Shown: one piece after another, positions 1 to 16,112 of the stretch
Layout: each line of letters opens with the position of its first letter
How positions within the stretch are numbered: the stretch's first letter is position 1
Assembly: GCA_963665095.1 (NCBI GenBank)
Contig: OY762069.1
Location: 256,001-320,000 of the forward strand
Direction of reading: 5' to 3'
Length of the DNA: 64,000 nucleotides
Source: an uncultured Desulfobacter sp.
GTDB taxonomy: Bacteria > Desulfobacterota > Desulfobacteria > Desulfobacterales > Desulfobacteraceae
The notes under the pieces: model-generated
Databases searched by the model: none
The model's input: the letters and a program-made list of their open reading frames with translations, nothing else
What the model was told of the DNA's origin: nothing
Position numbers and translations under genes: made by a program

Positions 1-1294
1 CATGCCGCCATCCTTCCACGCCCGTAAAGCGCATCCACCGGGACCAGTCTGCAAAAAGGTCGAGCATTCCCCTGGGTCCCACAGGGGGGTGCAGCGGGAC
101 TTCCTTTACCAGAAGCCCGGGTTGGAGATGGGGAAGCGGAGCCTGGTGGAAAAAGCTCTGCAGATAGAGATCCGCCTTTTTCTCAGAATTCCTGGCCAGC
201 ATCTCTTCAGGCCCCAATCCTTTGTTGACCGGACAGGGAAACGTTCCGGGATCATCCAGGAAATTCGCTTCAAAATATCGGGTATTCAGAAGGTTCACCT
301 CTACAAGATCCGCCTGAACCAGGTCCAGAAACTCCATGAGCCATCCTAAGTGAACCGGTGCTGCATTGACAATGACCCTGAGGCCTTTGAACGGATTTCC
401 CAGGCGCTCGACCTCTTCCACGAAAAAGCGTTTTTCCTCTTCCATGATCCCATCCAGATCCACTTTCATGCCCAGCACTGTTAAAATGGCATCCAGCCAT
501 TCTCGGGTATCTTTGAACCCGGAAGGGAATCCCTGGCTGATATAGGGCATACCGAAACGCTCGTGAAGGTGGCTGCACACGGCCAGAGACTGATTCCTGG
601 CTGCCGGCAGATTCAGGCCGGCCCGGGTGACTTTGGGCAGATCTTCAAAGGGCAGGTCCACGATAAACCGGGTGTTGATCCTGAGACCGATTTTCTGCAG
701 CAGGCGCCGGATCTCCCAGTAATCAAAGTCAGCTATGGGCATGATACCGGGCTCAGCCACCAGGTTCACCAGGCCGGAGTCCACGGCTGATGACGGTGCA
801 AGGAACCGGTCAATGACATCCAGGTAAGCGGTGTTTATACCCTCATAATGATCGCCTTTTAGAAACCCACCCATGTTGAAATAGATCACCTGGCGCCCGG
901 TTTCTTCGGCCATGGCATCGCAGACACCGGACACGTCATCGCCGATCACCTCCACGGTGCAGCTGGGGATCACAAGCAGGGGACGTCCTGGGAACTGCTC
1001 CAGGGTTTCCCTGATTTTCCGGCTCAGTTTTTCCTCTCCGCCAAAGATCAGCTCATTTTCCGTCATGCCGGTGGAGGTAAACCGGATGTTTGGCAGGCCG
1101 AAATCCGGCAACAGCTCTTGTTTTCTCATGAGCATCTGCTGGCAGAATTTCATGCCGTAGTGGGCGCATCCCGGTGTGCCGTGGAGCAGGACAACCGTAT
1201 CACGAAGATTGAGCAGGACGCTTAACGCCCCCACCAGGGTGCAGGAAAGACGGCTTCCCTTGATACATGGGATACAATATTTGGTCTCAGACAT
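1..1294 (-). CDS. Nitrogenase component-1-like oxidoreductase (NifD/NifE/CfbD-like, 'NflD'); 3' end runs off the window
   Basis: Not in the ORF track; I translated it by hand from the ATG at 1294, which overlaps the NifH-like stop. It reads MSETKYCIPCIKGSRLSCTLVGALSVLLNLRDTVVLLHGTPGCAHYG...STGMTENELIFGGEEKL...VIPSCTVEVIGDDV...LHERFGMPY and stays open to position 2 (>430 codons). The three N-terminal cluster Cys motifs of the component-1 fold are present. Confidence 0.9.
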   Translation of the reverse strand, partial: MSETKYCIPCIKGSRLSCTLVGALSVLLNLRDTVVLLHGTPGCAHYGMKFCQQMLMRKQELLPDFGLPNIRFTSTGMTENELIFGGEEKLSRKIRETLEQFPGRPLLVIPSCTVEVIGDDVSGVCDAMAEETGRQVIYFNMGGFLKGDHYEGINTAYLDVIDRFLAPSSAVDSGLVNLVAEPGIMPIADFDYWEIRRLLQKIGLRINTRFIVDLPFEDLPKVTRAGLNLPAARNQSLAVCSHLHERFGMPYISQGFPSGFKDTREWLDAILTVLGMKVDLDGIMEEEKRFFVEEVERLGNPFKGLRVIVNAAPVHLGWLMEFLDLVQADLVEVNLLNTRYFEANFLDDPGTFPCPVNKGLGPEEMLARNSEKKADLYLQSFFHQAPLPHLQPGLLVKEVPLHPPVGPRGMLDLFADWSRWMRFTGVEGWRH

Positions 1295-2102
1295 AACGGT
1301 TCACCAGTGCATCAAGGCCATCCTGTTCAAAGGGAGACGGCGTCACCAGTTCAGGGGCGCTCGCCACTTTACGGGCAAGGTCGGCAAACTGCCCGGCAAT
1401 GTCATGCTCCCCATTGTAGGCCATTACAGTTTTACGGCTGATTTCGGCTTTGTGGAAAATGTCGTCACGGGGGAAAAAGGCCACCATACGTGATCCCACC
1501 TCACGGGCAAAGGCGTCAATCAGCTCCTTTTCCCAGGGTTTGTTGAAGCGGGCGTTTCCGATGATGCCGGCAAGCCGCCCCCTGTCTGCCGAGGAAAACC
1601 GGGCAATGCACTTGCAGATATTGTTGGCCGCATACAGGGACATGAACTCCCCGGAGGTCACGATATAAATCTCCTGAGCATAGTTTTTGCGGATGGGAAC
1701 CGCAAAACCACCGCAGACCACATCCCCAAGGACATCATAAAGAATGATATCAATGTCCGGCGTGATCACGGACAGCTTGTCCAGTACCTCAAACATGGAG
1801 ATGATGCCCCTGCCTGCGCATCCGATACCCGGTTCAGGCCCCCCGGCTTCTATGGTCAGTACCCCGGCGTATCCGGTTTTTAAAATTTCATCCTTTGTGA
1901 CCCCGGCAGGCCCTTTGGCCCTCAGGGTATCCAGGACCGTAGGCTGAAGCTGCCCGTTGTGAAGCATCTGGGTGGAGTCGTGTTTGGGATCACAACCGAT
2001 CTGCAGGATGGTGGACCCGGAATTAGACAGGCAGACCGACAGATTGGTTGTGATGGTTGATTTGCCGATTCCCCCTTTGCCGTATATCGCGATCTGTTTC
2101 AT
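1287..2102 (-). CDS. NifH/CfbC/BchL-family iron protein (nitrogenase-like reductase ATPase)
   Basis: YGKGGIGKST P-loop, GCDPKHDST, EAGGPEPGIGCAGRG and YDVLGDVVCGGF carrying both [4Fe-4S] Cys; AAAGGAG RBS upstream. Confidence 0.95.
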   Translation of the reverse strand: MKQIAIYGKGGIGKSTITTNLSVCLSNSGSTILQIGCDPKHDSTQMLHNGQLQPTVLDTLRAKGPAGVTKDEILKTGYAGVLTIEAGGPEPGIGCAGRGIISMFEVLDKLSVITPDIDIILYDVLGDVVCGGFAVPIRKNYAQEIYIVTSGEFMSLYAANNICKCIARFSSADRGRLAGIIGNARFNKPWEKELIDAFAREVGSRMVAFFPRDDIFHKAEISRKTVMAYNGEHDIAGQFADLARKVASAPELVTPSPFEQDGLDALVNRYV

Positions 2103-2152
2103 GAATACTCCTTTATATTCTCAATTCGATTATCTTGCTGGCCAGTCTGCTC

Positions 2153-4270
2153 TCACAGACGGCAGCGCTCCAATGTCACCATATCGGCATATACGCCCCT
2201 GGCGTCCATCAGGCTGTAATGATCCCCATCCTCAATGACCTGTCCCTCCCTGATAACCAGAATACGATGAGCATAACGGGCCGAGGCCAGGCGGTGGGCC
2301 ACGGTAATACAGGTGCGGCCGGCCATGATCGAGGGCAGCCGGGACTGGATCAGCTGCTCGCTTTCGGGATCAATCTGGCTGAAGGCCTCATCAAGGATCA
2401 GAATACGCGGGTCACCTGCCAGGGCCCGGGCCAGGGCCAGCATCTGGCACTGCCCCTGGCTGAGCTTGCGCCCACCTTCCCCGATACGGGTGTGTATTCC
2501 CTGGGGCAGGGTGTTCACCCAGGTGTCCACCCCGCTGATTTCAATGGCCCGGTCAACCATGTCAGGGGGGATTCCACTGCGGCCAAGGAGGATGTTCTCC
2601 CGGATGTCCGCTGCCAAAAGAATCATCTCCTGGCTGACCAGGGTGATCTGCTTTACCAGGTCTTTGGAAGGAATAGCCGTGAGGGGGGTTCCGCCAAGGC
2701 TGATTTCTCCCTGCATGGGGTCGTACAGGCGCAGCAGCAGGTTAACCAGGGTGCTTTTCCCGCCCCCGCTGGGTCCCACAAGCGTCACGGTCTGTCCCTG
2801 GGGGATGAACAGGTTGAAATTGTCAAGGATCTTTCGGCCCGTATGATACCCAAAGTCAACCGCATGAAATTTGATATCCCCTTTATTTGGTGTCCCTTTA
2901 TTTGGTGCACCGGTGCCGGGTTTGCCTGCTGTTTCAAGGCGCCGGGGATCGTCCAGAAGGATAAAGATACGTTCGGTGCTGGCAACGGCACCCTGCAGTT
3001 GATTATATTTGTCGCTCAATCCGCGGATTGGGACAAGCAGCATCTGGATGTAGGTCAGAAATGCCACAAGGGTCCCAAGACTGAGGCGGTCATGGATGAC
3101 GCTGAAACCGCCGTGCCAGATGATCAGGGCAATGCCCAGGCTGCCCAGAAGTTCCATCAGTGGGGTAAATACGGCAAACATTTTTGTCTGGGCCAGACCG
3201 GCCCTGAAATACCGGTTGTTTGTCCGGATCAGTTTTTCCATGACCATGGATTGTGCACCGAGCAGCCGGATGGTGTCGATTCCGGCGATGCTTTCCTGCA
3301 GTCCGGTATTCACCTGGCCGGTGCAGGCTTTGATCCGGTGAAAAATCTGTTTGGAGACTTTGGCAAAATACCAGGCAAGGAGTGCCATTGGCGGCACAAT
3401 CAGCATGCAGACCATTGCCAGGCGGGCATTGAGCGCAAACATTACCCCGGTGATGCCGATGAACAGGAACAGCTCCTTGAACAGGCCCGTCACCATGTGG
3501 CGGAACAGCTCGGCCATGCTCTGAACATCGTTGTTCATACGGGTAACCAGCCTGCCTGCGGGGTTGTCGCTGAAAAAGGCCTGGGAACGGGTCAGGATAT
3601 GGTGAAACAGGGCTGCCCGGACATCCTTCATCATTAATTGTCCTGCGCGCTCCAGACACACGCTTTGAATGTAGGAGGCGCCCAGCAGGGCGACGGCCAG
3701 GAACGAAAACAGCAGGGCCATGCTGATCAGCCCGCAGGCATCCGCCCGCCGAATCGTCTTCAGGTCCTCTGCCGGGAGCTGCTTTAGATCCTTTTCCGCA
3801 ATGAGGATGTCGGCATCCCGGCGCTGAAACACCCCGGGATGCCGGCTGATCAGTTCGTCATTTTCCGCTGTTGCCGGTGCGACATAGTACCGCAGGGCAG
3901 ACACGCCACCGGCCGCCCGAATCCGGGCGGTAAGAGCCGGATCCAACTTACGCCAGTTCCCTTCCCGTATAAACAGATCTTTTTTTATCTCTTTGGGATT
4001 TAGTCCATGGGGCAGGGCGCCATTCAGGGCTTCCTGCAGGGAGGTATCCAGTTGTTCAGGATGCACATGAACATGATAGGGGACCAGATATCGGTCAATG
4101 GCCGTGCGGGTAATCACCGGCAGGCTCAACTCCAGTCCGATGCACAAAGGGATCAGGATGGAAGCGATGACCACAAGGCGGCGGTGGGGGGCAAGGAAGC
4201 CGGCCATCCGACGTATCATTCCTCGTTTTAAAAATACAGCCGGCCTCAGGACAGCATCGGGTCCGCTCAT
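2153..4270 (-). CDS. ABC transporter fused permease/ATPase (exporter-fold heterodimer subunit 2)
   Basis: TM domain, GPSGGGKST Walker A, LSQGQ signature, ILDEA Walker B, AHRL; start overlaps the upstream ABC gene (ATGA). Confidence 0.93.
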   Translation of the reverse strand: MSGPDAVLRPAVFLKRGMIRRMAGFLAPHRRLVVIASILIPLCIGLELSLPVITRTAIDRYLVPYHVHVHPEQLDTSLQEALNGALPHGLNPKEIKKDLFIREGNWRKLDPALTARIRAAGGVSALRYYVAPATAENDELISRHPGVFQRRDADILIAEKDLKQLPAEDLKTIRRADACGLISMALLFSFLAVALLGASYIQSVCLERAGQLMMKDVRAALFHHILTRSQAFFSDNPAGRLVTRMNNDVQSMAELFRHMVTGLFKELFLFIGITGVMFALNARLAMVCMLIVPPMALLAWYFAKVSKQIFHRIKACTGQVNTGLQESIAGIDTIRLLGAQSMVMEKLIRTNNRYFRAGLAQTKMFAVFTPLMELLGSLGIALIIWHGGFSVIHDRLSLGTLVAFLTYIQMLLVPIRGLSDKYNQLQGAVASTERIFILLDDPRRLETAGKPGTGAPNKGTPNKGDIKFHAVDFGYHTGRKILDNFNLFIPQGQTVTLVGPSGGGKSTLVNLLLRLYDPMQGEISLGGTPLTAIPSKDLVKQITLVSQEMILLAADIRENILLGRSGIPPDMVDRAIEISGVDTWVNTLPQGIHTRIGEGGRKLSQGQCQMLALARALAGDPRILILDEAFSQIDPESEQLIQSRLPSIMAGRTCITVAHRLASARYAHRILVIREGQVIEDGDHYSLMDARGVYADMVTLERCRL

Positions 4271-6054
4271 ATTCCCTCCGAAAGTCTGGACGTCAGCTGC
4301 TGGGTCTGGACCAGGCGCCGGTACAGGCCGCTGTTTTCGATCAGGTCTTCATGACTGCCCTCTGCTTTAATATATCCCTCTTCCAGGACGACAATATGGT
4401 CGCAGAAGGCCAGGGACTGGGGGCGGTGGCTGACAATCAGGCAGCCGGTCCCGGCCCGGGTGCGCGACAGATTTTCAAGTATCCGGGCTTCAATCCTGTT
4501 GTCCATCGCTGACAGGGAATCATCCAGAAGGAGCCAGGGGCAGCCCTGGAGAAGGGTGCGGGCCAGGCATAACCTTGCCTTCTGGCCGCCGCTCAGGGTT
4601 CTTCCCTGCTCCCCAAGGACGCTGTCCAGCTGTTCGGAAAGGTTTTGGATCTCTTGGGAAAGCCCTGCGGTATCAATGATCTCCCACAGTTTCCGGTCTC
4701 CTGCCGACGGGCTGGCCAGACGCAGGTTTTCACGGATGGTATCGGAAAACAGGAACGGTTGTTGAACCGCCATGCCCAGGGTGGATCTCAACTGCCCAAG
4801 GGGCATGTACGTAATGTCAATGTCCCCGAGAAAAATACTGCCCGGCGGCGGTTCGCAAAGACGGGTCAGCAGGTGCAGCAGGGTGGATTTTCCGCTTCCT
4901 ACGGGACCCACAATGGCGGTGGCCGTTCCGAAAGGTATTTGGAGCGTGATGTTTTTTACAGCAGGCCGGTCCTCGCCCGGATAGGTAAAGGACAGGTCCT
5001 TGATCAAAATATCAGGGGGTAAAATTCCAGGGGTGACAGTTTCATCTCCCCTGCCGTGCCGGACAGGGGCTTCCTCCGTTAAGGAGGCCCGTTCCCTGCC
5101 GGGCTGCCGCGCCAGGATTTCATCCACCCGTGCGCAGGAACTTCTGGCCCGCTGGTACAGGTTGATCAGATAGCCGGAATAGACCAGCGGGGTTCTGAGC
5201 ATCACCAGATAGGCGGAAAAGGCCACAATATCCCCGGCGCTCAGCAGCCCGAATACGGCCATGGCCCCACCCAGTCCCCATACCGCGGCCTGGCTGAGAT
5301 GGGTGACCAGGGTCATGACCGGCAGATACAGGGCCGAGACCCGTGCCAGTTCCATATTGTTATCCAGATGACGCCGTGCCAACCGTTCCAGCTGCCGGTC
5401 CTTGACGGAAATCAGATTAAATACTTTGATCAGCCGGATGGCATTGACACTGTCCCTTGACTCTTCGGTCAGGGCGGAAAAGGATTCCTGAATGCACTTG
5501 TGACATTGGTGGTACCGTTTGCTCTGGCGGGTGGTCAGCCAGGGGATGACCACCAGGGGCAAAAAGGCCAGAAGGGTCAAGACGGGGCTCATGCAAATCA
5601 TATAGGCCAGCGCCAGCACCAGCGTCAGAACGGAGTTCACCGCTGCCTGGAAGCCGTAGCCGCAGGCCAGGCGGATATTGTCTATATCATAGGTGGCCCG
5701 GGCCATGACGTCTCCGGCAGGACGCCGGCTGCCGCCGTTGCCGGACCGGCCGATGACACAGGAAAAAAAAAGTTTGCGCAGGTCCCTTTCGATCATATAG
5801 CCAAAGGCCAGCATAAACGGCCGTCCCACTGCCCGCAGGACTGCCACGCCGCAGGCCAGTGCCACAATGCCGCCGCCGATCCGGACAAGATCTCCTGTAT
5901 CGGCCCTGCCGGCAGCCAGCAGGTTAACGGCCTGTTTGATCAGCTGCGGGGAGTACAGGGCCATCAGCTCCAGGCAGAGAATCGCTGTAGCCCCGACTCC
6001 CGGCAGCCACCAATACCTGCGAACATCCTTTTTAATGAGTGCTATTGCCTTCAT
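4267..6054 (-). CDS. ABC transporter fused permease/ATPase (exporter-fold heterodimer subunit 1, degenerate Walker B)
   Basis: TM domain, GPVGSGKST, LSGGQ, LLDDSLSA (Asp in place of the catalytic Glu), SHR. Confidence 0.93.
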   Translation of the reverse strand: MKAIALIKKDVRRYWWLPGVGATAILCLELMALYSPQLIKQAVNLLAAGRADTGDLVRIGGGIVALACGVAVLRAVGRPFMLAFGYMIERDLRKLFFSCVIGRSGNGGSRRPAGDVMARATYDIDNIRLACGYGFQAAVNSVLTLVLALAYMICMSPVLTLLAFLPLVVIPWLTTRQSKRYHQCHKCIQESFSALTEESRDSVNAIRLIKVFNLISVKDRQLERLARRHLDNNMELARVSALYLPVMTLVTHLSQAAVWGLGGAMAVFGLLSAGDIVAFSAYLVMLRTPLVYSGYLINLYQRARSSCARVDEILARQPGRERASLTEEAPVRHGRGDETVTPGILPPDILIKDLSFTYPGEDRPAVKNITLQIPFGTATAIVGPVGSGKSTLLHLLTRLCEPPPGSIFLGDIDITYMPLGQLRSTLGMAVQQPFLFSDTIRENLRLASPSAGDRKLWEIIDTAGLSQEIQNLSEQLDSVLGEQGRTLSGGQKARLCLARTLLQGCPWLLLDDSLSAMDNRIEARILENLSRTRAGTGCLIVSHRPQSLAFCDHIVVLEEGYIKAEGSHEDLIENSGLYRRLVQTQQLTSRLSEGI

Positions 6055-6831
6055 TTATAAGTTCGAATCCAGGGACCGGGCAGCGCCGTAGGCTACGCTG
6101 AACTGGGGATGCGGCAGGACATGGAGATCCCGGCACAACTCATCCTCGATGGCAGCGGCCAGGCCGTGGTTGTTGGCGGAACCACCATCCAGGTAGACGT
6201 CGTCTTCGATGTCCCGTCCACCGGCCAGCCCGGCAATACGGCGGGCCAGGGATTCATGCAGCCCCCGGATGATGGATTGCTTTTCAATGCCCTTGGCCAT
6301 CAGGGAAACGATCTCGCTTTCCGCAAACACCACACAGGTGCTGCTGATATTGACGGTGTCCGATGAGGACATCCCCAGATCGCCGAAGTCATTCACCGGG
6401 GTATCCAGAATCCTTCCCGCCACCTCAAAAAACCTGCCGGTGCCTGCTGCACACTTGTCGTTCATTTTAAAATCGATCAGCCTGCCGGTTTCCGAAAGGC
6501 GGATCACCTTGACGTCCTGGCCACCGATATTGATGATGGTCCGGGCTTTTTCGCCGCTGAGCAGAAATACCCCCAGGGCGTTGGCACTGACCTCATCCAC
6601 CACCTTGCCGGCGTCATTGACCAGGCCTTTGCCATAGCCGGTGGCCACCGGGGCCTCCAGTTGATCCGGCGAATATCCGGTTTCTGCCAGGCCTTGGACA
6701 ATCAGGTCATTTGCGATTTGCGCCTGTCCGGGAATGGTGGGTACGACGCTTTTCCAGACGATCTCCCGGTTTTTCAAAAATACCACTTTGATGGCTGTAC
6801 TTCCCAGATCAATACCTACTTTTACTGTCAT
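6055..6831 (-). CDS. Acyl-CoA dehydratase activase (HgdC/BcrAD ASKHA-fold archerase; DCCP-reductase-like)
   Basis: GIDLGST, ATGYG, IGGQDVK, MNDKCAAGTGRF and ISSTCVVFAESE motifs. Confidence 0.93.
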   Translation of the reverse strand: MTVKVGIDLGSTAIKVVFLKNREIVWKSVVPTIPGQAQIANDLIVQGLAETGYSPDQLEAPVATGYGKGLVNDAGKVVDEVSANALGVFLLSGEKARTIINIGGQDVKVIRLSETGRLIDFKMNDKCAAGTGRFFEVAGRILDTPVNDFGDLGMSSSDTVNISSTCVVFAESEIVSLMAKGIEKQSIIRGLHESLARRIAGLAGGRDIEDDVYLDGGSANNHGLAAAIEDELCRDLHVLPHPQFSVAYGAARSLDSNL

Positions 6832-6883
6832 TATAAATGGTTGCCTCCTTAGGTTAAGGTCAGGATGAATTTGTGCAGGGGAT

Positions 6884-8131
6884 TCAAATTCCGCTGAATG
6901 CCTCCAGACGGGTTAAGATATTGCGGCTGTCCTCTTCCACATAATCTGTTTCGATTCGTAAAAATTTATACCCCTCCTGCTTCAGCTTCTGTTCCAGGCT
7001 CAAACTTTCAATATCAAAGGGATGGCACCCCTTGAGTACATGAAAGACCACCCCCCGGATGCGGTGCTGTTCCAGGGTGTTGAGAATGCTGTTGATCCTT
7101 CGTTCATTGTCCGCAAAGGTAGGGCAGATGCAGGCCCTGTGATACCGCTGGGACAATGCCTTGATCAGCCCGTGAAAAGAGCTGTCGTCATAACAGACGC
7201 CGCCGGGCCAGATCCGTTCGGATGTGCACAGATCATCGGCAAACACATCCATTCCGGCCGATTCGATCAAATCAAGAAGTTTATAGTTGGGGAAAACAAT
7301 GGGGGAACCGGCCAGGAAAAGGCCCTGGGGTAAAGGCTGAAAGGAACTTTCTTCAAGGCCGTCTAACAGTTTTTCAACCTGTTCGGTCCAGATTTCCACC
7401 GGGTCCATCATGAAGCTGTTGATCACCACCATAAACCAGATGCCGGAAAGCAGGCCCCTGCGTCGCAGGTCAATAAGCTTGCCCATAGTCTTCCATGCCT
7501 GCATAAAGGTCTGCACCGATGCCTTCAGGGTTTTACGTTTCAGCTTTCTGCCGGTTTGATTTTCCAGAAAATCCACCAGGCCGTACATCTCTTCCAGCCA
7601 TCGCTGCTGCCCTTTTTCATTTTCACGCAGATGGGGCAGCTCAAGAAAACAGGTTTTTTCAACCGTATCTGCCATCTCCGGAAATTTAACCACCCAGTCA
7701 CAGGTGGTCGGTACCACCTGAGGCAGTGCATCGGTACGGGTGTCATTGTGTAACTCGAGCATTCCCATGGTGGCCTTGAGATAGGGGCACATGAGAACGG
7801 GCAGACGGGAAGAAGATACCCGCACAACATTGAATGATCCGCTGCCCAGCCGGACGGGGTGCACCCCCATGGCATGGAAGAGTTCAAAGGGCGCCTGATT
7901 GCATAAATGCGCCACCACCGGGCGGCCTGTTGCCTCACCTATTGCGTTTGGATAAAGGGCGCGCATGAGCAGATCGAGAAAATAGGTCATCTGGGGACAA
8001 AAGTCCCTGCGCTGCTCCAGCCGGGACCGGGCTCTTTCAAATTCCGCCCGGGTGTCTCTGCTGATTTTTGTCAACTGCCGCTGTCTGCGCTGATTGGATT
8101 TTGGGTCTGCTTTTTTATCTTTATTGTCCAT
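6884..8131 (-). CDS. 2-hydroxyacyl-CoA dehydratase (HgdAB)-family Fe-S protein, candidate double-cubane cluster protein
   Basis: Six Cys motifs (HLCNQAPFEL, LMCPYLK, PTTCDW, DDLCTSER, CICPTF, KGCHPF) and the family C-terminus IETDY...TRLEAF; adjacent to an activase. Confidence 0.88.
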   Translation of the reverse strand: MDNKDKKADPKSNQRRQRQLTKISRDTRAEFERARSRLEQRRDFCPQMTYFLDLLMRALYPNAIGEATGRPVVAHLCNQAPFELFHAMGVHPVRLGSGSFNVVRVSSSRLPVLMCPYLKATMGMLELHNDTRTDALPQVVPTTCDWVVKFPEMADTVEKTCFLELPHLRENEKGQQRWLEEMYGLVDFLENQTGRKLKRKTLKASVQTFMQAWKTMGKLIDLRRRGLLSGIWFMVVINSFMMDPVEIWTEQVEKLLDGLEESSFQPLPQGLFLAGSPIVFPNYKLLDLIESAGMDVFADDLCTSERIWPGGVCYDDSSFHGLIKALSQRYHRACICPTFADNERRINSILNTLEQHRIRGVVFHVLKGCHPFDIESLSLEQKLKQEGYKFLRIETDYVEEDSRNILTRLEAFSGI

Positions 8132-9077
8132 GGGGCACCTTTTTTGGGGTAAACCGGCGGGTCATATAGTTACGGGAAGAGGAAAACAGCCGCCACTTAA
8201 AAAATTTTACCTGCAGCACCTCATCCTCCGGGCAGGCCTCTGTACAGGTCATGCACAACAGGCAATCCTCACTGAGGACATCTTTACCCGTTTTCTGTTC
8301 ATGGACGGTTCGGATATCCATGGGGCACATGCGGTGGCAGTTTCCGCAGCCGGTGCATCCCGACACCTTTTTCTGGAACCGGATCGGACTGAGTTTCCTG
8401 AAAATATGAATAAGGACAAGCAGGGGGCAGAACAGGCAGAAAAACCGTTCCTTAAAGAACATGCCCACCACCATTCCGCCGGCGATGCCCACTGAAAGGA
8501 TGGAAAAGACCAGGGTGACCGTGTTGGTGAAATCCAGTGCCAGATGGTGGGTATGGCCGATAAACAGCGGCATCAGGGGCTTTGCCGGACAGATACTGCG
8601 GCAGAACGGCAGATGAAGATCATTGTGCCAGCCGGCATGGGCGATAAGTAAAGGGATGATCAGGGTGTAAGCCAGCAGAATCCATTTGATGACCATAAGG
8701 CGGTCTTTTGTCAGCCAGGAGAACTGGGCCTCGCGAATTCCCAGCCAGCGACGAAGATAGGTAAACCAGTCCTGCAGGGTACCAAAGGGACAGATCCAGC
8801 CGCACCAGTATTTGTTCAGGAGGATGACCAGCAGGATGAAAACCCCTAAATGGGAGAGCAGCTGCAGCCCCATGACGCTGGTGAGGTTGTCCCAGGACAT
8901 CTGCAGGCCCCACCAATTGCCCTGCAGGGCCATCAGATAACAGCCTCCGCCGCATCCGAATACATAGGGACAGCTGAAACAGGGCAGAGAATTGCCCAGG
9001 CTGACGCCGAAGCGGCCGCCGTAAGTCAGCACGACAAACATGAGATGCTGGGTGATCAGGCGTAGATTGGTAACCAT
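8121..9077 (-). CDS. Membrane-bound 4Fe-4S polyferredoxin (NapH/MauN/FixG-like)
   Basis: TM helices with CxxxCP motifs (CGWICPFG, CRSICP, FCLFCP) and a C-terminal 2x CxxCxxCxxxCP ferredoxin; start moved to the ATG at 9077, which overlaps the upstream stop (TAATG). Confidence 0.9.
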   Translation of the reverse strand: MVTNLRLITQHLMFVVLTYGGRFGVSLGNSLPCFSCPYVFGCGGGCYLMALQGNWWGLQMSWDNLTSVMGLQLLSHLGVFILLVILLNKYWCGWICPFGTLQDWFTYLRRWLGIREAQFSWLTKDRLMVIKWILLAYTLIIPLLIAHAGWHNDLHLPFCRSICPAKPLMPLFIGHTHHLALDFTNTVTLVFSILSVGIAGGMVVGMFFKERFFCLFCPLLVLIHIFRKLSPIRFQKKVSGCTGCGNCHRMCPMDIRTVHEQKTGKDVLSEDCLLCMTCTEACPEDEVLQVKFFKWRLFSSSRNYMTRRFTPKKVPHGQ

Positions 9078-9970
9078 TATATCCACCTGTGTTTTCGGTT
9101 GAATATCGTCAAAATAGAAAATACCAGAACCGTGGCGCAAAAAAGTATCAGTCCGGGTTTCAGCCGGTTGTGGGCCAGATAGGCCCTGTGCAGGAGCAAT
9201 GTCCGGGTAGTGGCGTATTCCTGGTCTGCAAAGGATTCTTCAACCAGCACAACGGTTTGCTTGCAGTCGTAGGGACCGGAATTATCCAGCTTTGGATCAT
9301 GGGGCGCTGTATAGGAAAAGGTGTCGGCGCTGGATACGGAAAGCCGGGCAACCTGCCCCTGCTCCTCTATGATCGAAACCGAACCGATCATTTTACCTTT
9401 GGGTGCATACATGAAGGTGTAGGGCAGCCCGGTCATCATATAGGTTACGCGTGATTTTGATGTCAGTCTGAGTTGCGGCAGATTCCAGGGCAGTTGGGCC
9501 GATCCCTGTTGAACCTGCGCTTCGTGCGGGGCTTTGCCGAATATAGGATGGACCACATGGGCCAGGAGTTGTTTCGGGCCGCAGGAGGCTGTCACATATA
9601 CTTCCGCAATATTGTTGCCCTGGGATGTGATGGTGAAGCCGAGCCCATCTTGATCACGAACTACCGGGGCGGTAAAATAGCCCTCCCTGGGGGAGAACAG
9701 ATCAAATCCATAGGGGCGTGTCTTGGGCCTGGACCTTATCCGGAACCGATATATGGCCGTGCAATCTCCCGGAACCAGCCCGCCCGGGTCCATATCCCGG
9801 CTGTAACGGATATAATAATATTGGGTCAACGCGCCGTTTTTATGCCGGCACTGATGGGCGCAATTGATCCAGATATACTGCGGACACAGGTTAGAGGTTT
9901 CGGGCGGTAAACTGGAAATTGCCGCTGCCGGTAAAAATATAATGAAAACAATCATCAGAATGTTTCTCAT
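9077..9970 (-). CDS. Hypothetical exported protein with N-terminal signal peptide and C-terminal membrane anchor
   Basis: MRNILMIVFIIFLPAAAIS signal-like start after a GAAAGG RBS; hydrophobic C-terminus followed by basic residues; translationally coupled to the next gene. Confidence 0.75.
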   Translation of the reverse strand: MRNILMIVFIIFLPAAAISSLPPETSNLCPQYIWINCAHQCRHKNGALTQYYYIRYSRDMDPGGLVPGDCTAIYRFRIRSRPKTRPYGFDLFSPREGYFTAPVVRDQDGLGFTITSQGNNIAEVYVTASCGPKQLLAHVVHPIFGKAPHEAQVQQGSAQLPWNLPQLRLTSKSRVTYMMTGLPYTFMYAPKGKMIGSVSIIEEQGQVARLSVSSADTFSYTAPHDPKLDNSGPYDCKQTVVLVEESFADQEYATTRTLLLHRAYLAHNRLKPGLILFCATVLVFSILTIFNRKHRWI

Positions 9971-10070
9971 GTTGATGCCTTTCTTCAGCCCCTGCTTCTG
10001 CCCGGGGTTCCCGGTTGAAACGCCGGCTGACAATGCCCCGGGGCCTTTGCCATCACCCCAGGCAGGGAGA

Positions 10071-10108
10071 CGGCAGAACCGTCCAAAAAGGAGATATCGG
10101 TTCTGCCG
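10071..10108 (-). other. Intercistronic stem-loop after the TonB receptor gene
   Basis: CGGCAGAACCG-N16-CGGTTCTGCCG perfect 11-bp inverted repeat with no clear U tract; could stabilise or attenuate the mRNA. Confidence 0.5.
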
Positions 10109-10148
10109 CTCAATTAAAAATGCAGCATTGTCATCACATATTTTTTGG

Positions 10149-12128
10149 TCAATAGGTCAGGTTCAACCCTGCGTAGAAACCAATGCCCGGACCCGTGTAC
10201 CCGTACATGGACTGGTACTTTTCATTCGTAAAATTTTCAATCCTGGCTGTAAGCTGAAGCCAGTCCATGAAGTCGTAGGAGATCTTGGTGTTAAATATCA
10301 ACTGGGCCGGAACCACAGGATAACTGTCTCCCAGTTTTGCGGCGTAACGTTTCCCCTTGTACTGCGCGGACACATTCCAGTTAAATTTTTCCCACGGTGT
10401 GTAATTGATGGAGCCGCCACCGGTGTGTTTAGGAATGTGGGTCCTCTGCCGGTCTAAAGAGTCATCAATGGATTCCTGGTAAGTATAGTGGAGATTGAGC
10501 GTCAATTCGGGAATGACACGCCAGCTCAGGGAGGTCTCCAGACCGTCTGTCGTAACACCTTCAACGTTGTAAAATTGAGTTTGACCGTTGATCCTAGCAG
10601 TTCCGATCAAATTCGTAATGTCATTGTGAAAATAGGCAATGGAAAGGGCCAGCCTGTCATCAAGCAGATACTGGTCAATGCCGATATCAAAAGACTTGCT
10701 CTTTTCGGGTTCAAGGTCCTCATTTCCATAACCATAGGGATAGTACAGCTGCAGGAGGCTGGGTGCCTTAAATCCCGTGCCATAGCTGGTTCTAATTTTT
10801 GTCCCGGTATTGTCAAAAAAATAGGCAGCTGAAACCTGGTACGTTGTGGCGGATCCGAAATTTTCGTGTTCATCGTACCGCAATCCTGTCGAGATATTTA
10901 TATTATCCGTAGGCGTCCAGTGGTTGCTGACAAATCCGCTTGTTGTATAGGCACTCTCATTGTTGATCGGTATCGAAGAACCGGAATTCATCCTTGCCTC
11001 CTCCTGGATGTAGTCAATACCGGCCGTGAGGGTGTCCCTGTCACCGAGAAAAAAATTATTCTGCCAGGAAGCTGTCTGGGTGGTGCCTTCATAACTATAC
11101 TTAAATTTCTCGATTTCCGTAGAGGCATCATAATATTCCGCTTCGTTGTTGGTGTTCCCCACCTTCAGGGAACTGGTCCACCATTTACTGATATCCTGAT
11201 CCAGGTGAGCGCTTATGATAAGCATTTCGTTATACATTATATCGTAACCATCCCTGCCAAGACCGGTGATCGGATCGGGTGAGTCGTCAGTCTCCATACT
11301 GGTGTCTGAGTAATATGCGGTAAGTCCCACTTCCGTCTTATCCGTGATCCGCGCGTTGAGCTTTCCTGAAAGGGATGTGTTGCCGTACTCATCTTCTTCC
11401 TGTTCCGGGCTGTCCGCCTTTGACAGGCCGCTAATGTCCGTCCGGGTTGCCTGGAGGCTGTAATCTAATATAGCATTGCCTCCCCTGACTCCCAGATTCT
11501 CCTTAAAGGTCTCAAAGGACCCCCCTTCAAAACCGGCAGTAACTGTAGGTTTACCCTTTCCCTTTTTGGTGATGATATTGATAACGCCTCCCATGGCATC
11601 GGAGCCGTACAATACACTTTCAGCCCCTCGAACCACTTCGATACGTTCAATATTGTCTGTCCCCAGATAGGCCAGACTCAGGGCGTTGCTTGTGGAACCG
11701 GGATTCTGCACCCGGACGCCGTCAATCATAACAAGGGTTTTGCCGTTGGCGGCACCGCGGACATACATGTATTCCGCACCGCCGGGAGGACCGTAGGAAC
11801 TGATAGTTACTCCCGGAACATCATTCAGCACATCAATAACGGACTGGGTGCCCTTTTGCTGAATTTCCACATCGGTGATGACCGTCACCGATTTTGTTAC
11901 CATGCGCAGGGATTCCTCCACACGGCTGGCTGTAATCACCACCTCATCCAACTTTAGCGTGTCGTCCTCTGTCTCCTCCTGGGTTTTGTTATTTGCTTCC
12001 ATTTTTTGGGTTTCGCTTTTTGACGTTGTCTCATCCTGATCTGCGCCAACGGCAAAAGCCGGAATTAACAGCAGCCACAATACTCCTAACATTGACGACA
12101 ACAACTTGTTTCCGCAGATTGACTTCAT
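10149..12128 (-). CDS. TonB-dependent outer-membrane receptor, BtuB-like
   Basis: Signal peptide, TonB box DEVVITASR, plug motifs LVMIDGV and IERIEVVRGAESVLYGSDAMGGVINIITK, C-terminal YAGLNLTY; directly downstream of a cobalamin riboswitch. Confidence 0.93.
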   Translation of the reverse strand: MKSICGNKLLSSMLGVLWLLLIPAFAVGADQDETTSKSETQKMEANNKTQEETEDDTLKLDEVVITASRVEESLRMVTKSVTVITDVEIQQKGTQSVIDVLNDVPGVTISSYGPPGGAEYMYVRGAANGKTLVMIDGVRVQNPGSTSNALSLAYLGTDNIERIEVVRGAESVLYGSDAMGGVINIITKKGKGKPTVTAGFEGGSFETFKENLGVRGGNAILDYSLQATRTDISGLSKADSPEQEEDEYGNTSLSGKLNARITDKTEVGLTAYYSDTSMETDDSPDPITGLGRDGYDIMYNEMLIISAHLDQDISKWWTSSLKVGNTNNEAEYYDASTEIEKFKYSYEGTTQTASWQNNFFLGDRDTLTAGIDYIQEEARMNSGSSIPINNESAYTTSGFVSNHWTPTDNINISTGLRYDEHENFGSATTYQVSAAYFFDNTGTKIRTSYGTGFKAPSLLQLYYPYGYGNEDLEPEKSKSFDIGIDQYLLDDRLALSIAYFHNDITNLIGTARINGQTQFYNVEGVTTDGLETSLSWRVIPELTLNLHYTYQESIDDSLDRQRTHIPKHTGGGSINYTPWEKFNWNVSAQYKGKRYAAKLGDSYPVVPAQLIFNTKISYDFMDWLQLTARIENFTNEKYQSMYGYTGPGIGFYAGLNLTY

Positions 12129-12166
12129 TTCGATTCCCCTTAAAACATTTAGATAAACGATTGGAC

Positions 12167-12202
12167 AAAAAAAAATCCCCGCGTTTTTTTAAACGCGGGG
12201 AT
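12167..12202 (-). terminator. Intrinsic terminator (riboswitch expression platform)
   Basis: Minus strand ATCCCCGCGTTT-AAAA-AAACGCGGGGA followed by nine T, between the aptamer and the receptor start codon. Confidence 0.85.
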
Positions 12203-12274
12203 ACCGTTTTTTATCCCTTTAACCAATTGTCTTCAGCAGAACACTCTACACCCGAGAGATTTCCGCTATGACGA

Positions 12275-12470
12275 TCCCAGGCAGGTCTTCTGGCTTCCTT
12301 CCTTTTTGCCTGCCTTCCCATTCGATCTTTCTCGAACAGTGGCATATTTCGGCTAAAAAGGACTCTTTTTAATAATATAAATTAAAAAAGAGTAACGGTT
12401 ACAGCGGCGGGTCCACCCCCGAATTTCACGGGGTTCCCTATTAAGTCCTTTCAGACACCTGAAATCCATA
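12275..12470 (-). ncRNA. Cobalamin (B12) riboswitch
   Basis: Minus strand carries the conserved elements AGGTG...AATAGGGAACCCCGTGAAATTCGGGG...CCCGCCGCTGTAA...GCCACTG...TGGGAAGG...AGCCAGAAGACCTGCC (B12 box). Confidence 0.95.
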
Positions 12471-12483
12471 CAAGTTTGAGGAT

Positions 12484-12515
12484 AGCATATAGAATAATTA
12501 TTTTTGATCTGTCAA
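12484..12515 (-). promoter_or_regulatory. Putative sigma70 promoter of the riboswitch operon
   Basis: Minus-strand TTGACA at 12515-12510, then an AT-rich spacer and TATATGCT just upstream of the aptamer; the -10 register is uncertain. Confidence 0.5.
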
Positions 12516-12741
12516 GATAATTGTTTTACATGCTATCCTCAATTGGGATGCGCATCGGCAAACAAGATGTAAGCAGCCTGAAGTCTCCTGCCAGATGCTC
12601 GAGTTCGGCAATGCCTGACGAAGGCGAGCTGGATGCCATTGGGCAGTCCGGCAATGTGGTTGAGTCAGCCATGGAAGCTGATGCGTTTTGTCAATATGTC
12701 ATTTATCTGTAGCCTGCTTGGAAAGCCGCCTTAACTTTTAT

Positions 12742-12905
12742 GTTTTGAACAGGTTTTCAACATGACCTGTTATGTTTTGAACATGTTTCCGATTGTGCGT
12801 TTTCAACGGTTTTATACGTTTTGAACATGTTCTGATCATGGTTTTCAACATGGTTTTCAACACCCGGTTCTTTTATTTGACGCTTTTTGAACATACTTAT
12901 GAACA
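12742..12905. repeat. Array of about 11 degenerate direct repeats GTTTT(G/C)AACA
   Basis: Copies begin at about 12742, 12753, 12774, 12799, 12809, 12818, 12829, 12841, 12853, 12884 and 12897, all in the same orientation. Confidence 0.8.
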
Positions 12906-13289
12906 CGAATGTGACTCCTCAGTTTTGCGGTATGAAGTATCACAATTCAGGGTGCAAGGCCGACATCTGGCAAAACAGGCATGAGCATATTTCATTCCGG
13001 GGGAAACCCGAATAATACAGTATGCTTTAAAGGGGCATTGCAGATCAGCCCTTGCAGGAAACACCAGATGCAGCCATTTACCCTGAGGCCTGGCACAGGC
13101 ACCGGAAAAACGATACCATCCAAATCATGATAAAAACCATCCTGAGATTGCCCAGGCAGTTTCCGCACCTGATTCGGCCAGAATAGGGTGTTCACCCCAT
13201 AGGCCTTTCAGGTTGATCATGACGCTGGCAACGATTACACTGCAATGCTGAGAAACCGTTACTTTAACCCAGTCAGGGGACCTATTTCC

Positions 13290-14420
13290 GTGAAGATTCA
13301 TAATGAACAGACCAAAATAGTTTACGATACAAATATTGTTGATTATATCAAAGAGCTCAAGCCCAAAAGGGTGTGTGTGACCAGTGACCCGTTCATGCTT
13401 AAGCTCGGGGTGGTTGCGCCCCTTGAACAATATTTCAAAACCAGTAACATTCCCTATAAAATTTTTTCAGATGTAAAGCCCAACCCCAGTCAGGCCCTTG
13501 TTACCGAAGGACTGGCTCATATCTTTGACACCAAGCCCAGCCTGATCATTGCCGTGGGTGGTGGCTCGGCCATTGATCTTGCCAAGGCCATCATGTACTT
13601 CTGTCTTCAGATCAAGACAGGTTTTATTGCAGAAGATGAACTGGTAAAACCTGTCTTTATCGCCGTGCCTACCACGGCCGGAACCGGCTCTGAAGTCACC
13701 AATTTCGCGGTGATCACCGATGACGAAACCGGTGCCAAGCAGGTGATCCGGTCCGATCTCATGCAGCCGGATGCAGCGGTGCTTGATGTTGATCTTACCA
13801 TGACCGCACCGCCCCACATTACCGCCGATACCGGATTTGATGCCCTGACCCATGCCATTGAGGCGTATGTCTCACGGGTGAGTACCCCGTTTTCAGATGC
13901 CTATGCCCTGCAGGCGGCTCAGATGATTTTTGATAATCTGGTGCCGGCCTTTGTCAGCAAAGACCGGGAAGCCAAACGCAACATGCAGCTGGCCGCCAGC
14001 ATTGCAGGTCTGGCTTTTAACCATTCCGCCCTGGGCCTTAACCACAGTATTGCCCATGCCGCGGGGGCCATTTTTCACCTGCCCCACGGCCGGGCCAACG
14101 CCCTGATCCTGCCGGCACTCATGCGGTTTAACATGAAAGATGAACCCACATTGAACCGGTACAGCCAGATGGGCAAGGCCCTGGGCTTTGTATTTGAAAC
14201 GCCTGGGAAGACAGCTGCCGCCCTTGTGCGGGCCGTGGAAATTCTAAAAAAAATGCTCGAACTGCCGGCCGGGTTTGCAGACATCGGTATAGACCGGAAG
14301 CAGCTGGAGGCTGAGCTCTCTGTGATTGCCCAGGAGGCTGTCAATGACTACTGCACCCCGGGCCACCCCTTTGAGGTGACAAAGGATGATGTAAAAAGTA
14401 TCGTCAGAACTCTGATTTGA
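13290..14420 (+). CDS. Iron-containing alcohol dehydrogenase (PduQ/AdhE-ADH-like)
   Basis: GGGSAIDLAK, PTTAGTGSEVT, DALTHAIEAY, HSIAH and HGRANA motifs; GTG at 13290 after an AGGGGA RBS. Confidence 0.93.
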   Translation: MKIHNEQTKIVYDTNIVDYIKELKPKRVCVTSDPFMLKLGVVAPLEQYFKTSNIPYKIFSDVKPNPSQALVTEGLAHIFDTKPSLIIAVGGGSAIDLAKAIMYFCLQIKTGFIAEDELVKPVFIAVPTTAGTGSEVTNFAVITDDETGAKQVIRSDLMQPDAAVLDVDLTMTAPPHITADTGFDALTHAIEAYVSRVSTPFSDAYALQAAQMIFDNLVPAFVSKDREAKRNMQLAASIAGLAFNHSALGLNHSIAHAAGAIFHLPHGRANALILPALMRFNMKDEPTLNRYSQMGKALGFVFETPGKTAAALVRAVEILKKMLELPAGFADIGIDRKQLEAELSVIAQEAVNDYCTPGHPFEVTKDDVKSIVRTLI

Positions 14421-14594
14421 TTTCCTGTCCTTCCTGCGGGGGGATCAAACTGTTTTTGGGAGCAGACATCTGGATGGTGCGCATATATCTGCCCGAGTAC
14501 CGTCCATTGCAATAATGCGACTCATAAGTGTTTTAAGGGTGTTCTTTTACGATGCCTTCTGAACTAACTTGCTGAATATATGACTTATTTATTT

Positions 14595-14610
14595 GGGTAT
14601 GTATTTTGCA
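14595..14610 (+). promoter_or_regulatory. Putative sigma54 (-24/-12) promoter
   Basis: GGGTATGTATTTTGCA has GG-N10-GC spacing and lies about 57 bp upstream of the NifB/NifX gene. Confidence 0.55.
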
Positions 14611-14667
14611 TATACCTTCTGAACGTATAGGGGACAGTCATTAATTCTGAAAACTACAGGAGGAAAT

Positions 14668-15240
14668 ATGAAAGTAGCCGTCAGTGCTTATGGAGATACC
14701 CTGGAGGCTGAAATTAACCCCAGGTTCGGCAGGTGCGACTATCTGGTCATTGTGGATACCGATACAATGGCATTTGAATCGTATCCCAACACAAATAATC
14801 AATTATCCGGCGGGGCCGGCATCCAGACGGCAACTTTTGTGATCTCTCAGGGTGCCCAGGCCATCCTGACCGGCAGCTGCGGTCCTAAAGCCATGGATGT
14901 GTTTAACTCAGCCAATATTCCGGTTTATCCGGGCCAGGCCGGAACCGTGGTCCAGGCTGTGGCGCGGTTTAAAAATAATGAGCTGGCATCCACTTCCCAG
15001 GCCACAGCCCCGGAAAAGGCCGGCATTAATCCGGGGTTTAACACCAGCCAGTCCAGGGCGGAAAACAATCCGTTTATTCCCGGCATGGGAGGTGGCGGTG
15101 GCAGAGGTATGGGCGGCGGCCGTGGTATGGGAGGCGGCAGAGGCCTTGGCGGTGGCCGCGGCATGGGCGGCGGTGGCGGCAGAGGCATGGGAGGCGGCCG
15201 TGGTATGGGCGGCGGCAGCGGTATGGGCCGGGGACGTTAA
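14668..15240 (+). CDS. NifB/NifX-family (dinitrogenase FeMo-cofactor-binding fold) protein with Gly/Arg/Met-rich tail
   Basis: MKVAVS...PRFGRC...GGAGIQ...TGSCGPKA; C-terminal (GGGRGM)n repeats; AGGAGG RBS. Confidence 0.9.
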   Translation: MKVAVSAYGDTLEAEINPRFGRCDYLVIVDTDTMAFESYPNTNNQLSGGAGIQTATFVISQGAQAILTGSCGPKAMDVFNSANIPVYPGQAGTVVQAVARFKNNELASTSQATAPEKAGINPGFNTSQSRAENNPFIPGMGGGGGRGMGGGRGMGGGRGLGGGRGMGGGGGRGMGGGRGMGGGSGMGRGR

Positions 15241-15273
15241 TGTTGGAATATGCGTAAGCAAAAGGAGGCAGCT

Positions 15274-15654
15274 ATGACAAAAGTAGGCATTATTCGGTGT
15301 GAAAAAAATGAAAACAGGTGTCCGTTGACCAACTGTTTTAAAACAATGATTGAGACCACCCAGGGCTTCGCCGGCTACGAGGCCTGTACCCCGGCAGGGG
15401 TGTTTACCTGCCGATGTCCGGGTGACAATGTGGCGGATATGGCAAAGATCCTCAAGGCAAAGGGGGCCGAGGCCATTCATCTGTGTACCTGTGCATTTGC
15501 GTCAAAAACCGAAGAAGGATGGAATAAGGACAAGGGCGGATTCTGCCCGGATATTGATAAGGTTGCAGCCGTTGTTTCCAATGCTTCGGGGCTTCCCTGT
15601 ACCCTGGGCACCGCCCATCTGCCCAAAGGGTATACGCCGGTTACCATCGGATAA
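15274..15654 (+). CDS. CGGC-domain small Cys-rich protein
   Basis: KVGIIRC...CPLTNC...FTCRCPG...IHLCTC...CP...GTAH pattern; AAGGAGG RBS before the ATG at 15274. Confidence 0.82.
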   Translation: MTKVGIIRCEKNENRCPLTNCFKTMIETTQGFAGYEACTPAGVFTCRCPGDNVADMAKILKAKGAEAIHLCTCAFASKTEEGWNKDKGGFCPDIDKVAAVVSNASGLPCTLGTAHLPKGYTPVTIG

Positions 15655-15700
15655 AAAAAACAGCTGCCCGGGTGTGTTACATCCGGGCAGCTGATATTTA
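15653..15700. terminator. Stem-loop terminator after the CGGC gene
   Basis: CAGCTGCCCGGGTGT-GTT-ACATCCGGGCAGCTG hairpin flanked by an A tract. Confidence 0.7.
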
Positions 15701-16030
15701 CAGCTTTCTGTTTACCGCCAATTGGCTCACCCCATTATAAGTCTCTTCTTCTCACATATTGCCATAGATCTCAATTGACCCGGAAACAAGGGTCCTATAA
15801 AATTTAAATAAGATTTCAAAAACACAAACAGTTGGGAGATCAATATTTGTCAAAACAGCACAACATGCCGGGGGACATGGAAGCCATATTTTAGGACAGA
15901 TTTATCTGGCTGTTCTTATTGCCCGTCTGTTGGGTATGCAGGGAAATTCGGGTCCTTCCTGTTAGGCGCAGGCCCCATACCCTTGTGCAGCAGGAGATAA
16001 AGCTTGAAAAAATAGCGGTTTTTGCTTATC

Positions 16031-16064
16031 AATAAAGAGTTTCTGTAAATAAAGAGTTTCTGTA
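16031..16064. repeat. Tandem 17-bp duplication
   Basis: AATAAAGAGTTTCTGTA twice, just upstream of the HDOD gene. Confidence 0.85.
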
Positions 16065-16112
16065 AAAATATCATCCCATAAGATCGTGAACTCAAAACAC
16101 AGGAAGAACATT

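Follow-up and report, generated by a model that had tools for sequence, protein, structure and literature searches.

A cobalamin-riboswitch-headed gene run of an uncultured Desulfobacter sp., best read as a mosaic of two reductase cassettes

We analyzed a stretch of 64,000 nucleotides (nt) from an uncultured Desulfobacter sp. (assembly GCA_963665095.1, contig OY762069.1), called the window below, which covers positions 256001-320000 of a one-contig 6.9 Mb genome whose coordinates are cited as G000. In its left part, a cobalamin riboswitch and a terminator precede 11 intact, co-oriented minus-strand genes, nine in the window and two to the left of it, which are predicted to form a single operon headed by the riboswitch. 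Judged by its sequence, this operon is best read as a mosaic of two reductase cassettes: cassette 1 encodes an exported protein, a membrane polyferredoxin, a double-cubane protein (DCCP)-type subunit and an activase, and cassette 2 is the nitrogenase-like gene trio nflHDK. Because the two cassettes occur independently of each other, the predicted operon appears to be a mosaic that forms part of a large B12 island. The reductases are often found beside cobalt-chelatase genes and are therefore likely to help in the salvage of B12-type pigments. We lean towards the view that the operon serves the salvage of imported corrinoid-type or other metallo-tetrapyrroles at low B12, with ATP-driven reduction for cobalt chelation.

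Two cassettes in one predicted operon

Eight other genomes of the class carry cassette 1, and none of them has an NflD orthologue (0/8; best matches ≤30%). Near the four other nflHDK loci of the close NflD family with readable context, cassette 1 was absent as well (0/4), and Desulfosarcina variabilis holds both cassettes 1.0 Mb apart. The combination was found again only in a near-identical strain. The original prediction had proposed an import-and-reduce pathway with two reductases; as a conserved two-reductase pathway, this proposal was not supported, and the lack of the combination elsewhere had been named in it as grounds for rejection. The stricter version, in which both cassettes form one obligate pathway of import and double reduction, is favored by their tight co-orientation, which is kept in the second strain, but the counts given above and the separation in D. 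variabilis make it highly improbable.

The riboswitch aptamer (RF00174; 12263..12477, on the minus strand like all operon features described here) scored 83.5 bits with a gathering threshold of 31.5 (E 4.5e-19), lies upstream of the first gene and was the sole Rfam match in the window. An intrinsic terminator with a 12-bp stem and U8 (12167..12202, the hairpin at 12202-12175) was found by a terminator scan and by the leader fold and presumably serves as expression platform; the leader at 12130-12300 had a folding z of -5.1. A putative sigma70-type promoter (12486..12515), with TTGACA at 12515-12510 and a weak -10 region, was assigned by eye and is missing from the list of the promoter scan.

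Riboswitch, terminator and at least nine co-oriented genes had been claimed before, and the nine genes named then were all recovered with their families by Pfam and NCBIfam. All 11 reading frames are intact. The gaps along the run are 178, -1, -11, 52, 0, -4, 50, -8, -26, and -8 nt, i.e., seven of the ten junctions overlap or abut, in line with the earlier description of most of them. The suspicion of further genes beyond the left edge also proved right: the run goes on with the NifK-like gene nflK, followed by a gene for a BtuF-like Peripla_BP_2 protein, and CobN, ChlI/D and radical SAM genes are located in a converging operon. In sequencing run X1, which may be the source of the assembly, a single contig spans 16.5 kb with zero differences. 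Run X6 from a separate study holds the near-identical second strain, with the same gene order over 2801-5449 and 8844-16500 of the region L003. These two observations exclude an assembly artefact. The GC content varies from 0.48 to 0.60 across the operon and reveals no sharp step between the cassettes.

Cassette 1 starts with the gene for an exported protein (9077..9970) that has a C-terminal anchor and no Pfam family; signal peptides and membrane anchors were assigned by eye. Its structural model (pLDDT 82.5) consists of tandem beta-sandwiches and a C-terminal helix. The highest TM-score among the Foldseek matches listed was 0.42/0.51, with a root-mean-square deviation of 7.3, for the DUF4198 protein Zcp; this modelled fold likeness is weak and can be taken as a lead only. 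The ESM Atlas returned only two hypothetical clusters (0.81). The NapH/MauN-type membrane polyferredoxin (8121..9077; Pfam, NCBIfam) has a CxxxCP-type motif and two CxxCxxCxxxC motifs, which are invariant in 12 aligned rows. The DCCP-type protein (6884..8131) belongs to the HGD-D family and matches PDB entry 6ENO best (E 9e-38); its best NCBIfam model is double_cubane (NF040772), with 209.7 bits versus a cut-off of 350. The cluster-ligand cysteines C77, C115, C144, C302, C336, and C369 are kept in 11/11 rows. At the seventh Cys position, a non-ligand in DCCP (PMC7317905), Ser97 is found here and Ser in the three closest rows, whereas the other seven rows have Cys in six cases and Asn in one. 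Thus, the protein possesses the six ligand cysteines and an adjoining archerase gene, and lacks the full seven-Cys motif and a score above the NF040772 cut-off. The archerase is an HgdC/DCCP-R-type ATP-dependent activase of the BcrAD/BadFG family (6055..6831; TIGR00241, 220 bits versus 125.4). Of the earlier label "HgdAB-family," the HGD-D family was correct, but the gene encodes a single subunit of double-cubane type instead.

Cassette 2 had been described as a nitrogenase-like pair. The NifH-like and NifD-like proteins are present, but the set comprises three genes, with nflK to the left of the window. NflH (1287..2102; Pfam, NCBIfam and alignment) is an Fe-protein with Walker A motif and both cluster cysteines, and its best NCBIfam model is CfbC, with 348.5 bits below the cut-off of 402. 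NflD (438 aa; 1..1294) ends at G000 255978, 22 nt left of the window, and NflK (456 aa; G000 254633-256003) has its start codon at positions 1..3 and its body outside. Six P-cluster cysteines were found, three in each subunit (C18/C43/C112 in NflD, C18/C43/C116 in NflK). The FeMoco ligands are missing: compared with the host's own NifD, NflD has Ala at the Cys275 column and no His at the His442 column. With the nifD model the comparison was 90 versus 653 bits. No nifB gene was found in the operon or at the four other nflHDK loci, and the nifB of the host belongs to the nif cluster, at a distance of 4.6 Mb. From its residues, NflDK is predicted to hold only a P-type cluster.

The remaining genes are devoted to transport. 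The first gene of the operon encodes a TonB-dependent receptor of 659 aa (10149..12128; PF00593 and PF07715), and the last one the BtuF-like binding protein of 389 aa (G000 253471-254640). Between the cassettes, two ABC exporter halves are encoded, one SmdA/BmrC-like (4267..6054; Pfam, NCBIfam) and one BmrD/YheH-like with an extracytoplasmic insert (2153..4270; residues 28-702 match YheH, E 4e-82). The ABC heterodimer noted before is thus present, but corresponds to the BmrCD/YheIH exporter type within an uptake operon. A close orthologue of the pair was not found in 250 other class genomes (four candidates per genome scored). To the right of the operon (14668-15654), a Nitro_FeMo-Co protein with a Gly/Arg/Met-rich tail and a CGGC-domain protein are encoded, which are probably unrelated.

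Distribution and neighborhoods of the cassettes

Matches to the DCCP-type protein at E ≤1e-80 were present in 8/300 other class genomes. Including D. variabilis and a paralogue in the host, ten other cassette-1 loci were available (the one in G230 is distributed over two contig ends and counts as one). The order exported protein-polyferredoxin-DCCP-activase is kept in them; in D. variabilis a DUF4198 gene is inserted and the exported protein is more distant. A cobalamin riboswitch heads the co-oriented run at all ten loci, against a background of about 2% of the host genome located in riboswitch-headed runs (one nested run counted twice). Within the fetched DNA, CobN genes occur at six and TonB genes at eight of the ten loci, and CbiZ, CbiK or a cbi operon are near several, with CbiK flanking two. 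In five of the six cassette-1-linked CobN proteins, a signal peptide and a C-terminal anchor were recognized by eye, and DUF2162 and MotA/ExbB genes accompany these five, as they do in HmuS/BtuS loci. The host's paralogous double-cubane cassette is located, together with CbiK, in a riboswitch-led island (G000 4515000-4547800, L051-L053), which also carries three HmuS/BtuS-like exported CobN proteins, three TonB receptors, a PBP-CbiZ fusion and a nitrilase-family protein. Nitrilase-family genes are found in both CobN islands of the host genome.

Distant relatives of the cassette proteins were sought by word-indexed searches. The NflD family comprised 17 clusters at 55-100% identity (self included), and the next matches were below 30%. 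NflD orthologues were detected neither in 60 relatives nor in 400 class genomes, and neither NflD nor NflK orthologues in 400 phylum genomes (four candidates per genome scored in both sets of 400); one of the 65 genomes of the D. variabilis family has an NflD orthologue. Matches of 458 aa in same-genus genomes were rejected as ordinary NifE, and the 40 plasmid matches listed of 261 are NifE-type at about 25% identity (38 annotated as nifE, two unannotated). Five same-genus genomes (G005, G016, G021, G022, and G024) gave two to five matches each, which look like repeated nifK-nifE copies.

CobN adjoins nflHDK at three of the four other loci; the remaining one has ChlI and a ChlD-like fragment in this place. 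TonB genes occur at three of the four. Counting the operon studied here, CobN or ChlI/D genes stand beside nflHDK at five of five loci. The D. variabilis locus continues with genes for binding proteins, FecCD, ABC-2, CbiC, ChlD, ChlI and a PCP_red-radical SAM fusion. This fusion (L067 10019-11593), downstream of nflHDK, joins the PCP_red domain, known as the C-terminal domain of BchB, to a radical SAM domain. A second, distant nflHDK clade forms operons of the order riboswitch-TonB-btuF-btuC-btuD-nflHDK in 2/251 class genomes, both headed by a riboswitch. Its loci (L005 10560-19066 and L073 1722-10505) encode subunits that keep fewer cluster cysteines. These neighborhoods bear on the possibility that nflHDK is a passenger which recombined into a B12 island and has an unrelated job. 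The very rare and patchy occurrence of the trio, its solitary sister family and the other loci without riboswitch are in favor of a passenger, but the constant company of chelatase genes and the like context of the second clade render it improbable. In a tree of 29 rows, which holds no MAR, ISR, DPOR or group VI rows, an nflH-nflD fusion family was the sister group of both subunits (98/95 and 99/99), and CfbD and NifD/E were separate from them.

Only 6 nt separate the end of the 11-gene run from that of a convergent second cobalamin-riboswitch operon of about 27 kb, located to the left of the window (G000 226040-253464, riboswitch at 226040). This operon encodes a BtuFCD-like importer, a TonB receptor and an ABC-2 pair with a His-rich tail, along with three cytoplasmic-type CobN proteins, ChlD/ChlI and CbiZ. 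CcmC- and ResB-like genes, a radical SAM gene and a nitrilase-family gene are also part of it. The link to corrinoids or cobalt, which had been suspected from the riboswitch, was thereby strengthened: three CobN, ChlI/D and CbiZ converge on the operon, chelatase genes accompany 4/4 other nflHDK loci, and the riboswitch heads every other cassette-1 locus.

A few further loci were recorded. In the host, a run behind a non-Rfam leader (G000 6126321-6143116; L006 16321-L007 13116) has the order DUF4198-TonB-btuFCD-Opp-type ABC-methyltransferase-nflD-nflK-nflH and is without cobalamin riboswitch. A second run (G000 3518858-3527543; L008 858-9543) combines aspartase-like, HydF, NiFe-hydrogenase-large-subunit-like and radical SAM genes with a divergent nflHDK trio. 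A nitrogenase-like locus with two tandem nifH-like genes lies in L024 and L025, next to acyl-CoA, aldehyde:ferredoxin-oxidoreductase-like and branched-chain transport genes (all labels by eye). The non-Rfam leader (GGCCA..AAGG-hairpin-TGGC.TTTTT) is terminator-like and recurs ahead of TonB/CobN/DUF4198 or exported-protein genes, at L004 1345-1405, in L022, at L067 8739 and L068 3974, and at G000 5723971, 6125914, and 6627515. Three matches were counted in the host genome and none in one mononucleotide shuffle, and the element is a candidate attenuator or riboswitch platform.

Possible role in tetrapyrrole salvage

Common to all contexts is macrocycle or cobalt uptake combined with CobN-family chelation. 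According to the salvage reading favored here, transcription would read through the terminator at low B12, and the TonB receptor and the BtuF-like protein would import the macrocycle. The activase would energize the double-cubane protein, and low-potential electrons might travel via the membrane polyferredoxin and reduce the metal centre at the envelope, which could aid ligand or metal release by CobN/HmuS-type proteins. In the cytoplasm, NflH would drive NflDK for reduction of the ring or of cobalt. CobN-ChlI/D and CbiZ of the converging operon might then provide cobalt insertion and trimming, so that the product can enter the host's B12 pathway, and the BmrCD-like pair might export a by-product.

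Individual parts of this scheme have precedents. HmuS takes iron from haem only in the presence of a reductant (PMC12583661), and a role in metalloporphyrin salvage was predicted for BtuS (PMC6460266, citing Rodionov 2003). CobN acts on hydrogenobyrinic acid a,c-diamide, into which it inserts cobalt, and the Co(II) must be reduced afterwards (PMC7242693). In Dehalobacter, corrinoid starvation causes a 346-fold induction of an operon that has a riboswitch and encodes BtuFCD, CbiZ, CobN and subunits of Mg-chelatase (PMC4285132). The notion that one ring reduction of the anaerobic pathway still has no assigned enzyme was not confirmed by the literature consulted and carries no weight in this scheme. 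As a speculative extension, which we consider unlikely as it stands, NflHDK and the membrane double-cubane cassette might be interchangeable ATP-driven electron sources for CobN-family proteins, enabling a reductive metal exchange that feeds B12 salvage. If this were true, anaerobes would turn haem, siroheme, F430-type and mis-metalated or metal-free corrins into B12 precursors. Such a salvage route would be undescribed, and the class of reaction would be new to both enzyme families.

Cobalt uptake is another process controlled by B12 riboswitches. This fits the main rival to tetrapyrrole salvage, according to which the operon scavenges cobalt (or nickel) from a non-tetrapyrrole chelate by reductive release, with CobN and CbiK using the freed cobalt. 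The rival also gains from the Zcp-like fold of the exported protein, Zcp being a DUF4198 metal-capture protein (PMC12663993), from the DUF4198 gene inside the D. variabilis cassette 1, from the two loci flanked by CbiK and from the non-cobalamin leader of the D. variabilis nflHDK. However, the likeness to Zcp is the weak one reported above, and CbiZ, the HmuS-like CobN with DUF2162/MotA, CbiC and the BtuF-like proteins point to macrocycles. We therefore regard a chelate as a possible but rather doubtful substrate. As a further option, the reductases might replace a B12-dependent reaction at low B12, a bypass like MetE or NrdAB. Riboswitch control would fit, and small molecules are substrates of NFL (nitrogenase-like) and DCCP reductases (PMC13474568, PMC7317905), but no substrate-pathway or sulfur genes are nearby. 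Since the neighbors at nearly all loci are genes for transport, chelation and trimming, this bypass, which the original prediction had offered as an option, is very unlikely.

Several observations weigh against tetrapyrrole salvage under B12 control or against the mosaic. The best NCBIfam model of the TonB receptor is BtuB (TIGR01779), with 258 bits below the cut-off of 599.7. A cbi operon for de novo synthesis is present in the host, so that salvage would be dispensable there. Together with the lack of cfbA and cfbE matches in the host genome at E 1e-8 (one methanogen query each), the same operon suggests an accessory route and not F430 synthesis. At the four other nflHDK loci no cobalamin riboswitch was found, two of them being cut upstream; L004 and L022 have the different, non-Rfam leader with terminator, and Rfam gave nothing credible on the D. 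variabilis nflHDK leader. The operon studied here is therefore the sole example of B12 control in this nflHDK clade. L004 and L022 are closely related (CobN 93%), which leaves at most three independent other nflHDK loci, and related genomes and transferred islands are non-independent samples in general. The sister nflH-nflD fusion family stands alone (0/4 loci behind a riboswitch). As for the mosaic, L021 and L069 share a 95%-identical CobN and, behind it, the same GDPD-like gene, downstream of nflDK in the former and of cassette 1 in the latter. Because the L021 sequence is cut at nflD, and cassette 1 could lie upstream unseen, this represents a shared slot, with exchange of the cassettes unproven. 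The fold search, finally, returned MarD (Z 24.7), BchN-BchB (Z 23.6) and NifEN (Z 23.2), all within 1.5 Z units, and thus structure does not choose among MAR, DPOR and NifEN.

If the salvage role holds, two enzyme families so far without an assigned job would gain a role that can be tested. According to a 2026 review, the function of uncharacterized nitrogenase-like systems is one main challenge of the field, and gene context has so far yielded little beyond hints at sulfur (group IV) and tetrapyrroles (group VI); the words "riboswitch," "CobN" and "double-cubane" do not occur in it (PMC13474568). Here, the six-Cys, cofactor-less NflDK clade and the DCCP-type module are both associated with B12 as a defined signal and with a short list of substrates. 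Since a single complete genome holds both modules along with three other nitrogenase-like loci, six CobN and 14 cobalamin riboswitches, one comparison with and without B12 would probe several orphan enzymes.

Comparison with known systems

In the literature we found no paper that connects cobalamin riboswitches or CobN with NFL or DCCP enzymes, although subscription papers and supplements could hold one. Six-Cys proteins without FeMoco ligands, a nifH-nifE fusion and co-location with ABC transporters were already noted by Dos Santos 2012 (PMC3464626). By the features compared, NflHDK does not qualify as nitrogenase, MAR, CfbCD, DPOR/COR or group VI; groups IV-A/D/E/F lie outside the comparison. 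With MAR (MarBHDK, group IV-C) it shares all six P-cluster cysteines, and MarD was the top structural match. The mar2 cluster of MAR is bound by a Cys and His pair (PMC13753814), whereas NflD has no Cys at the mar2/FeMoco position and no His442 equivalent; the FCYTLS motif of MarD aligns with PAARNQ. Neither marB nor nifB was found beside nflHDK here or at the four other loci, and sulfur genes are absent beside it here. NFL group VI proteins have at most four of the six P-cluster cysteines and radical-SAM-rich loci (PMC13474568; 10.1101/765248), in contrast to the six cysteines and the lack of a radical SAM gene in the 11-gene operon.

The double-cubane part most resembles DCCP/DCCP-R of Carboxydothermus hydrogenoformans (6ENO, 7YYL), likewise a single HGD-D subunit beside an archerase with the six ligand cysteines aligned. 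Here, however, Ser replaces the seventh Cys, a polyferredoxin and an exported protein are fixed partners, and a B12 riboswitch is present. HgdAB and benzoyl-CoA reductases have two different three-Cys subunits, in contrast to the one HGD-D gene with six ligand cysteines. As a whole, the island resembles HmuS/BtuS loci and operon 2 of Dehalobacter restrictus, where TonB or BtuFCD uptake, CobN-family proteins, CbiZ and ChlI/D are combined in a regulated island; in the available descriptions of these, a nitrogenase-like or double-cubane reductase is not mentioned.

By analogy, NflHDK would work most like CfbCD or DPOR, as a nitrogenase-like reductase that has no cofactor and is linked to tetrapyrrole genes. 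With DPOR (BchLNB) and COR (BchXYZ) of group V it shares a heteromeric, cofactor-less component 1. Cluster ligation by three Cys and one Asp is characteristic of that group, but NflDK has Cys at all six positions, no BchB-type Asp, and no bacteriochlorophyll genes nearby, and the DPOR/COR models gave 42-71 bits versus cut-offs of 324-912. CfbCD (group IV-B) is similarly an ATP-driven nitrogenase-like reductase without FeMoco ligands beside a chelatase, and CfbC is the best model for NflH. CfbD, however, is a single homodimeric protein encoded with cfbA/B/E and forms its own clade (100/100) apart from NflD and NflK, whereas the Desulfobacter operon encodes two component-1 subunits with three plus three cysteines, whose partner chelatase would be the class I CobN.

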